In this document: positions 9,503 to 11,272 of the stretch, piece after piece
Layout of the letters: each line of letters starts with the position of its first letter
Numbering within the stretch: the stretch's first letter is position 1
IMG/VR virus record: IMGVR_UViG_2690316311_000002
Length of the DNA: 11,272 nucleotides
Direction: 5' to 3' (one strand)
Origin: a virus
Taxonomy: Duplodnaviria > Heunggongvirae > Uroviricota > Caudoviricetes
Translations under genes and position numbers: made by a program
Notes under the pieces: model-generated
What the model was told of the DNA's origin: nothing
What the model saw: the letters and a program-made list of their open reading frames with translations, nothing else
Databases searched by the model: none

Positions 9503-9988
9503 CTACCTGATATTACTGCTACTGTTGCATGTTACCGTGTTTCCAAATCCTGAATTGCAGTTTGTATATGTGTCAACGCGTGTTGGGTAAGGTTGAGTTA
9601 TAACAGGCTGGCGCGCTTTTTGCTCGATCGCTTGCATTGTGTTTACAGCCTGATAATTCAATAAAGCCTGCTGGAATGCTTGGCTTTGTGCTATTTGTTG
9701 GGCTTGTTCTTGGCTTTGTAATTGAACATAAAGATTCTGAAGCTCAAGTCTTGCCTGTGCGTCACTTATCTTGCCTTCATCGACACCTTTCCCGAGCATC
9801 TTTGCAGCAAGGACATACAGCTTAGGTGTTGGTGCTGATGCCATGCGTGAGTCGTTCTTCACACTGGCATCAAGGCAATTAGCCATATCGCTAAGCTTTT
9901 GATAGCGTTGTTCGCAACTTGCTTGATAGTCACTTACTTTTGCGCATCCAACCAGCAGAAACGGGATAATTAACAGTGATTTTTTCAT
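9503..9988 (-). CDS. Predicted outer-membrane lipoprotein, uncharacterised accessory gene (candidate superinfection-exclusion or lysogenic-conversion factor)
   Basis: Start chosen at the internal ATG (9988..9986) rather than the track's upstream ATG, because AAGGAG lies about 10 nt upstream and the product then begins MKKSLLIIPFLLVGC: a basic n-region, hydrophobic core and lipobox L-V-G-C (signal peptidase II type). Residue +2 after the lipid Cys is Ala, not Asp, implying Lol sorting to the outer membrane in E. coli-type hosts. The mature part has a Gln-rich helical segment and four further Cys. Opposite strand to all structural genes. Confidence 0.7.
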   Translation of the reverse strand: MKKSLLIIPFLLVGCAKVSDYQASCEQRYQKLSDMANCLDASVKNDSRMASAPTPKLYVLAAKMLGKGVDEGKISDAQARLELQNLYVQLQSQEQAQQIAQSQAFQQALLNYQAVNTMQAIEQKARQPVITQPYPTRVDTYTNCNSGFGNTVTCNSSSNIR

Positions 9989-10058
9989 ATGGTTAACTCT
10001 CCTTAGTTTTTCACAGGATATCATGAAGGCAATGCCATTTTAGCCGGAAACTAGATTT

Positions 10059-10325
10059 CTATGTTTCCTTTTTATTATTGCTATACATGGTCTTAAGCGT
10101 TTCAAAAACCATTTTCTTAACCATATCAGATTGTTGTTCTGCCATACGCTCTGCATCATCAATGTAAACGGATGCAGAGCTTTGTTTAGCCAACGATTCT
10201 TCAATCGCTGCAATTATCTCTGAGTTCAGCGACCTGTTATTCATCTTCGCGCGCTGTTTAATTTTCGCGTGGAGTTCATGCGGAAGTCTCAAGTGAAACT
10301 GCGCCTCGTCGTATTTGCTGTACAT
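10059..10325 (-). CDS. mnt: Mnt-like ribbon-helix-helix transcriptional repressor (Arc/MetJ superfamily)
   Basis: Translation from the ATG at 10325..10323 gives MYSKYDEAQFHLRLPHELHAKIKQRAKMNNRSLNSEIIAAIEESL...DDAERMAEQQSDMVKKMVFETLKTMY, which aligns with P22 Mnt as I recall it (...FNFRMPMEVREKLKFRAEANGRSMNSELLQIVQDAL...DAERLADEQSELVKKMVFDTLKDLY). GAGG lies 8 nt upstream of this ATG; the track's longer start (10358) has no RBS and adds 11 residues absent from Mnt. Confidence 0.85.
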   Translation of the reverse strand: MYSKYDEAQFHLRLPHELHAKIKQRAKMNNRSLNSEIIAAIEESLAKQSSASVYIDDAERMAEQQSDMVKKMVFETLKTMYSNNKKET

Positions 10326-10446
10326 CCTTGATGCCTCACCAGTTGGGTGGAATGGCATCGTAACCTACTGGATAAATACTCAATAGTACCATTTCGGTAT
10401 GCAATCACATCATGGTTGCATCATATCATTCTTCTGGAGCAATGAA
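10326..10446. promoter_or_regulatory. Divergent intergenic region between mnt (leftward) and tailspike (rightward); presumed promoter/operator region
   Basis: 121-bp AT-rich spacer between divergent starts. Contains inverted repeats GATGCC-N18-GGCATC (10330..10359) and ATGCAA-N11-TTGCAT (10399..10421) and the tailspike RBS GGAG (10436..10439). No convincing sigma-70 -35/-10 pair could be fixed by eye, so exact promoter positions are not called. Confidence 0.4.
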
Positions 10447-11272
10447 ATGTCAGATATCACCGCAAATGTTGTGGTCAGCATGCCTTCGCAACTCTTCACT
10501 ATGTCTCGCTCTTTTAAAGCCGTAGCCAATGGAAAAATTTATATCGGTAAAATTGACACTGACCCGGTAAATCCAGAAAACCAGATTCAGGTTTATGTGG
10601 AAAACGAAGACGGTTCTCACGTTCCTGTTTCGCAACCAATCATCATTAACGCTGCTGGTTACCCTGTATATAACGGACAGATTGCCAAGTTCGTAACTGT
10701 GCAAGGCCATTCTATGGCTGTTTATGATGCATACGGTGCGCAGCAGTTCTATTTTCCGAATGTGCTAAAGTATGATCCAGATCAGTTTAAGGGCAATCTC
10801 CTGAGCGAAGATCACTCACTTGGCGACTCTCTAGTCATGCATAACCCACAGTTTGTCGATAGCACATCGACCATTCTCTCAAAAAAGCTAACTATCGACC
10901 TGAGGACGCTTACAGACTACGGGTTTGCTGAGGGAAACACCGGTGCTCAGAACAAAGCTGCATTTCAGAAGGCTATTGATGATGCTACGTTGCCAACTGA
11001 GATTGTTATACCAGAGGGGGCGTTCATTGTTGACCCTGGTATTACGATTAAGAATACTGTCACCATGATACGAGGTGCTGGCGCATATCAGTCCAGAATT
11101 TTCTCTACGGGTACAGCGGCACCGATAATCACGCAACAAGATGGGGTAATTACGTTCTGCGAGTTCAGGGACTTTGGTCTTGACGGAAATGGCTACGCAG
11201 CTAACGGCATCAGTCTTACTGAAGCCAACCACATTAAAATAGAAAATATTGACGTGGTTAATACTAATAACA
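10447..11272 (+). CDS. Tailspike protein (P22 gp9-like head-binding domain plus a divergent receptor-binding/catalytic domain), 5' partial, continues past the window
   Basis: Translation from the ATG at 10447 gives [97 protein letters not shown]...[10 protein letters not shown], closely matching the P22 tailspike N-terminus I recall ([59 protein letters not shown]...). GGAG lies 7 nt upstream. Absent from the ORF track only because it has no stop in the window. Confidence 0.9.

Follow-up and report, generated by a model that had tools for sequence, protein, structure and literature searches.

P22 Mnt is a textbook ribbon-helix-helix (RHH) repressor; to our knowledge, work on it has dealt only with its guarding of the antirepressor gene. 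Besides mnt, the P22 immI region has arc, sar, ant, and a strong promoter, Pant. The variable region has been named the "ant moron," and ST64T, ST104, and Para1 carry only mnt plus one unknown gene there (Villafane et al. 2008, PMC2629481). In 2020, the genome paper of phage L (PMC8022706) likewise described an mnt-only ant moron, left open whether it is a remnant or has a new function, and did not discuss an operator. In phages of this type (ST64T, ST104, and L; also ST160 and the E. coli phage Gally), mnt abuts the tailspike gene.

We analyzed a window of 11,272 nt from a P22-like prophage (Lederbergvirus) of E. coli O26; it holds the end of the late operon. Here too, mnt abuts the tailspike gene: it is the sole immI gene between the gene 16 homolog and the tailspike gene and is divergent from the latter. 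Judged by its sequence, the locus is an mnt-only ant moron of the kind already described, in a second specificity class beside ST64T/L. The similarity to P22 immI extends to the position of mnt between the gene 16 homolog and the tailspike gene, its orientation, both protein domains, and a homologous intergenic region with a dyad in register beside the Pmnt -35. In contrast to P22, the window is without arc, sar, and ant, its Pant is decayed, and no ant is under Mnt control. An earlier note on this DNA had presented the locus as a special remnant. Instead, a layout without arc and ant is common and has been published before; it is not a one-off remnant, and its mnt is under purifying selection.

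The mnt Gene and Its Neighbors

Homology and domain content identify the ORF at 10059..10325 as a real, intact Mnt-type repressor gene (Table 1). It encodes 88 aa plus a stop, starts with MYSKYDEAQFHLRLP, and contains both Mnt-type domains. The product matched Arc (1.1e-14) and Repressor_Mnt (3.9e-12) in Pfam, the P22 Mnt structure 1mnt (dimer) across residues 6-78 (5.7e-19), and 1qey, the Mnt C-terminal tetramerization domain (1.2e-6). Pfam and 1mnt thus place an RHH DNA-binding domain of the Arc/Mnt type at the N terminus of the protein, and Pfam and 1qey place a coiled-coil tetramerization domain at its C terminus. The best reading of these matches is a functional RHH repressor that would form tetramers through its C-terminal domain. 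Window Mnt is 45-47% identical to P22 Mnt, and three of the four recognition-strand positions are changed: R2/H6/N8/R10 of P22 read Y/Q/H/R in the window. Two points of the earlier note, a clear Mnt homolog and an N-terminal beta-strand unlike that of P22, therefore stand.

Table 1. Features of the window around mnt, ordered by position
Feature	Position	Strand	Remarks
Final ejection-protein gene in the late operon, at the position of P22 gene 16	7641..9488	+	Left boundary of the "ant moron"
161-aa lipoprotein gene	9503..9988	-	Lipobox LLVGC; same strand as mnt, 70 nt downstream
mnt homolog	10059..10325	-	RHH domain, then Mnt C-terminal tetramerization domain
Shine-Dalgarno GTGAGG of mnt	10334..10339	-	8 nt before ATG at 10325; direct reading
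Pant relic, decayed	10352..10380	+	ATGGCA 10352-10357, then TAAATA (15 nt) or AATACT (17 nt)
Pmnt-equivalent, predicted	10357..10383	-	-35 TTGAGT 10383-10378, 15-nt spacer, -10 TACGAT 10362-10357
Candidate Mnt operator AGTACCATTTCGGTATG	10385..10401	.	Register of the annotated P22 mnt operator; arms TACC 10387-10390 and GGTA 10396-10399, center T10393
Second dyad/hairpin ATGCAATCA-CATCA-TGGTTGCAT	10399..10421	+	Tailspike leader
Tailspike ribosome-binding site GGAG	10436-10439	+	
Tailspike gene, 5' part	10447..11272	+	Head-binding domain, then pectate-lyase-like region; runs off the window

PGAP annotates the same 267-nt CDS, with the same start codon, in identical E. coli O26 genomes, and in strain 2014C-3057 its product is named "Arc family DNA-binding protein." We also considered an extended 99-aa ORF from an in-frame start at 10358 and rejected it as unlikely because the ATG at 10325 aligns with the start in P22, L, and ST160, because the Shine-Dalgarno sequence sits 8 nt upstream of that ATG, and because members of the phage L class have no open frame at the corresponding upstream place. 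The alignments of classes 1 and 2 both show this Shine-Dalgarno sequence to be conserved.

Many E. coli O26 chromosomes match the stretch from 9400 to 10700 at 100% identity. The gene order in 2014C-3057 is capsid, head-completion, and ejection genes, lipoprotein (-), mnt (-), tailspike (+), acyltransferase, intS, and a tRNA-Arg gene. The tailspike product matched Pfam Head_binding (5.2e-68) and is a phage tailspike protein according to PGAP; at the ejection-gene position, phage Gally has a gene annotated as an injection protein. Since the tailspike ATG lies at 10447, the gap between mnt and the tailspike gene is 121 bp, exactly as the earlier note had it, coordinates included. That note had also stated that the locus lacks arc and ant and had asked for ant-like genes to be sought elsewhere in the prophage. 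tblastn searches with P22 Arc and Ant over the window and ~64 kb covering the whole prophage agreed, with a best E value of 0.37 (3.1 for Ant), and PGAP annotates no antirepressor in the O26 prophage. The prophage has only one further regulator-like gene, of the Rha family, which is located between the lysis genes and the terminase.

The 161-aa lipoprotein occupies the slot held by sieA in P22 and could be a superinfection-exclusion or conversion gene. It contains four conserved Cys and belongs to phrog_6067, a family of unknown function; it has no Pfam family, PHROGs and NCBIfam were uninformative, and homologs in Escherichia, Serratia, Klebsiella, Yersinia, Morganella, and Pectobacterium are named hypothetical protein only. 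An AlphaFold model (mean pLDDT 64) predicts a helical bundle plus a C-terminal beta-hairpin, for which a fold search of the PDB returned no match. Between mnt and the lipoprotein gene, we found no terminator and no good separate promoter.

Two side observations concern annotation and the state of the prophage. The label "partition protein ATPase" is wrongly and widely given to Mnt homologs in RefSeq phage records and PHROGs (L002:2974-3267, PHROG 795/2685), although these are 83-88-aa RHH repressors without an ATPase domain. In the O26 strain NZ_CP027387.1 (L005:5719-6909 and L005:12808-13964), the prophage integrase has an internal stop, the early-left operon contains an IS600, and a number of early genes are pseudogenes; this prophage is probably defective, and its mnt-tailspike region is intact nonetheless.

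Recognition-Strand Classes and Selection

The mnt-plus-intergenic module is present in 269 of 5426 complete E. coli genomes (~5%), as well as in phages Sf101 and IME10. We surveyed 239 loci from IMG/VR scans, six species-representative genomes, and phage records; they are the matches listed, the closest relatives of three query proteins. The loci sort into three classes by recognition strand. First, the strand MYSKYDEAQFHLRLP (window, Sf101, and VSe13) occurs at about 88 loci, with the tailspike gene directly after mnt, mostly at 121 nt. Second, the strand MGRDDPQFNLRLP (L, ST160, and Gally) occurs at 68 loci, again with the tailspike gene directly after mnt. Third, the strand MARDDPHFNFRMP (P22) occurs at 83 loci, where ant follows mnt, almost always with arc. 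Because the loci are the closest relatives of three queries, sampling has partly shaped the classes, but not the link between class and layout. No locus with the window strand or the L strand among the 239 collected carries ant, and the exceptions to the window-class layout are a homing-endonuclease insert of the HNH/AP2 type or an insertion sequence, never arc or ant.

Within the window class, Sf101, IME10, and VSe13 share the window's recognition strand and operator, and their mnt abuts the tailspike gene. Mnt of Sf101 and IME10 is 90.5% identical to window Mnt, and a more distant mnt in the same layout is found in Gally, VSe13, L, and ST160. Unlike the window, Sf101 is without the lipoprotein gene, and VSe13 has another tailspike leader and a 17-nt promoter spacer. 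None of the Sf101, IME10, and VSe13 records annotates an orphan Mnt with an operator; in Sf101, the protein is called "partition protein ATPase." The ST64T/L type resembles the window in its decayed Pant, retained Pmnt, conserved operator, and purifying selection but differs in its strand MGRDDPQFNLRLP, its perfect GACCAC-N-GTGGTC operator, and a Mnt identity of 50-57%. A scan of species-representative genomes with a Mnt alignment gave 6 loci only, which include window-class members from Serratia and Citrobacter and P22-class members with arc and ant.

The orphan mnt genes are under purifying selection comparable to that on P22 mnt, with dN/dS about 0.12: 0.127 in the window class (37 alleles), 0.109 in the L class, and 0.084 in the P22 class. 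Truncation affects one window-class mnt ORF and two L-class ORFs, or 1 to 3% of loci, leaving ~97% intact.

Two arrangements deserve a description of their own. The HNH/AP2 insert (HNH_3 2.3e-20; ~180 aa; L040:2330-2869), found also in L032, L048, L063, and Kapi1 (L241:743-1243), lies between the mnt operator region and the tailspike gene, after the first 4-5 tailspike codons (MSDIT...); it is oriented opposite to the tailspike gene, and a fresh tailspike 5' end comes after it. In Serratia marcescens (L090), a strong terminator-like hairpin (AGCCAGC...GCTGGCTTTTTT) stands rightward of a window-class mnt and operator, 130-170 nt outward from mnt, and beyond this hairpin is a tail gene that lacks the head-binding domain of P22. 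Hence the mnt-operator module exists outside the classic tailspike junction too.

A Candidate Operator and Predicted Promoters in the 121-bp Spacer

The 121-bp spacer is homologous to the P22 mnt-arc control region, which contains Pmnt, Pant, the arc operator, and the mnt operator. Where P22 carries AGGTCCAC-G-GTGGACCT, the window has AGTACCAT-T-TCGGTATG, with arms centered on the same alignment column. This candidate operator is two-fold symmetric and sits beside the gene's own divergent promoter region, one to three bp upstream of the Pmnt-like -35. Its symmetry is weaker (4+4 bp): the arms are TACC/GGTA, compared with GTCCAC/GTGGAC in P22.

The dyads of the P22, L, and window classes all lie in the P22 mnt operator register, and each class has its own version: AGGTCCAC-G-GTGGACCT in P22, AAGACCAC-N-GTGGTC in the L class, and GTACC(A/G)T-T-T(N)GGTAT in the window class. 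In the last of these, 27 unique sequences show hardly any variation in the arms (TACC and GGTA) or in the Pmnt -10; the +/-2 positions vary, with symmetric variants included (TACCG-TTT-CGGTA and TACCA-TTT-TGGTA), and one arm carries a G-to-T change at five of 85 loci. Among 31 unique L-class sequences, the GACCAC/GTGGTC arms hardly vary, each of the four bases occurs at the center, and the flank on the tailspike side is replaced. Window-class homology ends just past GGTATG(C/T)AA, where several unrelated tailspike leaders are joined. As conservation collapses right beyond the conserved arms, the operator is inherited together with mnt and its recognition strand; the dyad travels with mnt in Salmonella (VSe13), Citrobacter, and Serratia contexts as well. 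These patterns suggest that window Mnt binds a single cognate dyad at 10385-10401. The different operator specificity proposed in the earlier note is likely on the same grounds, with TACC-N5-GGTA in place of GTCCAC-G-GTGGAC and co-inheritance with a changed strand.

The change of H6 to Q parallels a T-to-A change at one operator position in both the window and L classes. We considered a rule of one residue for one base and make no such claim, because Phlomobacter Mnt has Q at the same position and its operator reads ATCAC-G-GTGAT.

No second copy of the operator was found within 3 mismatches of the 17-mer in ~64 kb of prophage. With the 17-mer single-copy and the Rha-family gene without such a site, we rejected a remote operator target in the prophage. 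The earlier note had listed an antirepressor elsewhere in the prophage as a possible target; there is neither a second operator at this threshold nor an ant gene. Targets in other phages are a related idea. P22 Mnt represses the antirepressor promoter of superinfecting P22, and orphan Mnt might, in the same manner, provide immunity in trans against superinfecting relatives with the same operator. Purifying selection without a target in cis would fit this scheme. Among the loci collected, however, all those with the window strand or the L strand are without ant. A collection-wide scan for GTACCRTTTNGGTATG gave at least 120 matches; 52 of those listed adjoin mnt, the rest lie in unrelated contigs, and none of the matches listed is beside ant. 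We regard immunity in trans as quite unlikely.

One match of a different kind is worth recording. In an unrelated phage family (~54% GC), TGTGTACCGTTTCGGTATGTATATACAGCC occurs twice, 515 bp apart (L248:7579-7594 and 8094-8109); the family also includes L253, L279, L290, L314, and L330, and the copies are ~25 nt upstream of small genes. TGTGTACCGTTTCGGTATGTATATACAGCC contains the TACCG-TTT-CGGTA palindrome found in some window-class operators. No RHH or ant link was seen nearby, and we judged the resemblance coincidental.

We scored promoters with a rough sigma-70 PWM whose hexamer frequencies we supplied ourselves; it recovered both annotated P22 promoters as top matches (Pant 15.5 and Pmnt 13.1). 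P22 Pmnt (TTGAGA-17-TATCAT) aligns with TTGAGT-15-TACGAT in the window, and P22 Pant (TTGACA-17-TATATT) aligns with ATGGCA-15-TAAATA or ATGGCA-17-AATACT; the shared promoter spacer is 2 bp shorter in the window than in P22. The Pmnt-equivalent scored 8.0 and the Pant-equivalent 5.7, against a median best score of 7.6 for shuffled spacers. Across the orphan loci, the Pmnt-equivalent scored 8.0 to 10.5 and the best Pant-equivalent 5.2 to 5.7. The Pmnt -10 is invariant in the 27 unique class 1 sequences, whereas both orphan classes have a degraded Pant-equivalent, with no conservation of it from the window to VSe13. A promoter and terminator scan of 9350-10600 found no plus-strand promoter and no terminator. 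On these alignments and scores, a leftward Pmnt-like promoter is retained and the rightward Pant is decayed.

These results bear on a role for Mnt as a repressor of a Pant-derived rightward promoter reading into the tailspike gene, which would be silent in lysogens and give early synthesis after infection. The region is indeed homologous to Pant, a weak ATGGCA-17-AATACT promoter would start inside the operator, and the epsilon34 paper (PMC2629481) reported that the ant moron, and possibly Mnt and Arc, affect P22 tailspike levels. Nevertheless, the score of 5.7 is far from the 15.5 of P22 Pant and below the shuffle median, the scan found no promoter on the plus strand, VSe13 has the window's recognition strand without conserving the hexamers, and the L-class equivalent is without the critical -7 T. 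We therefore consider this role doubtful, and the earlier note, which had offered a rightward promoter into the tailspike gene as one option, is not borne out on this point.

Weaker still is the case for a decaying, functionless immI remnant, as the phage L paper (PMC8022706) allows. It would account for the loss of arc, ant, and Pant and for a dyad and promoter weaker than those of P22. Against it stand a dN/dS of about 0.12, an ORF intact in ~97% of loci, and operator arms and a Pmnt -10 that stay nearly invariant amid replaced flanks in E. coli, Salmonella, Citrobacter, and Serratia contexts. These conservation statistics count strongly against a remnant, which we hold to be highly improbable.

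The spacer also contains a second dyad (9+9; Table 1), 25 nt before the tailspike ATG. It is single copy within 3 mismatches (~64 kb), sits in the variable segment past the breakpoint of the mnt module, and has a natural T-to-C variant that makes the arms perfect (U.G to C-G, plus strand). The tailspike-leader RNA folds into a hairpin, with a whole-leader z of -1.85 in both the window and P22 and -0.03 in VSe13; in P22 and L, the corresponding site ahead of the tailspike ribosome-binding site holds another hairpin, which is GC-rich. On these z-scores, RNA structure in the leader was not convincing, and we set it aside.

Possible Roles of the Orphan Repressor

Our best explanation, to which we give roughly even chances, is that the locus is a functional, self-contained cassette of Mnt repressor and operator that the prophage expresses, probably along with the lipoprotein. 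After the loss of arc, ant, and sar, the remaining cassette would comprise Pmnt, the operator, and mnt, placed antisense inside the late operon just before the tailspike gene. A Mnt tetramer would occupy the dyad at 10385-10401, immediately upstream of the leftward Pmnt-like -35. Bound Mnt would most likely autoregulate the leftward transcript and silence any residual rightward initiation at the operator. In the window, the downstream lipoprotein gene is probably co-transcribed with mnt, and the tailspike would be expressed by read-through of the late operon. Homology, domains, the lack of arc and ant, a conserved operator and Pmnt, Pant decay, and purifying selection are direct observations; DNA binding at the dyad, the direction and sign of regulation, and co-transcription of the lipoprotein gene are what we infer from them.

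Several points weigh against this cassette. The dyad is weak (4+4 bp) and one arm is changed at 5/85 loci, and the Pmnt-equivalent has a 15-nt spacer and a score near the shuffle median. In vitro work on P22 is reported to show that Mnt stimulates Pmnt only indirectly, through shutting Pant. If the same holds here, the loss of Pant leaves the operator without an obvious job, and autoregulation alone would not account for the purifying selection. Of the targets suggested in the earlier note, the repressor's own promoter plus the downstream lipoprotein is the best fit to the sequence; the lipoprotein half does not generalize, since Sf101-type members are without that gene and its control cannot maintain mnt generally.

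Alternatively, a Mnt roadblock or head-on transcription from Pmnt might tune late-operon read-through to the tailspike gene. The operator lies on the sole path from the late operon to the tailspike gene, every orphan-class locus keeps mnt and the operator adjoining the tailspike gene, and a role of the moron in P22 tailspike dosage has been suggested (PMC2629481). This argument is purely positional, however. In the Serratia locus L090, mnt and the operator are followed by the terminator-like hairpin and a different tail gene, and blocked tailspike synthesis would be costly to the phage. Such tuning of read-through seems unlikely to us.

Two P22-like lineages keep mnt and a co-varying operator under purifying selection without an antirepressor, which argues for a second job for Mnt. 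To the question raised in the phage L paper (new function or remnant), we add the class-layout link, operator co-variation, purifying selection, and Pant decay; together, these argue for function rather than a remnant and answer the question in favor of function. More speculatively, orphan Mnt and its operator may be a conserved module whose own function is unrelated to antirepressor control, with at least two specificity classes distinct from P22, a proposal that we put forward only tentatively. That function could be tailspike dosage or timing, or some superinfection defense. This is an incremental step in a well-known system and not a new type of system. The three natural protein-operator pairs offer a possible small test set for DNA recognition by a beta-strand.

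A further variation on the P22 arrangement is seen in phage CUS-3 (L240:2211-2740), where two tandem mnt-like genes with the strands MARDDPHFNFRMP and MSDRKYKNPQVNLRLP lie upstream of ant. No arc is annotated in CUS-3, and a small RHH-like ORF is visible in its "boundary sequence."
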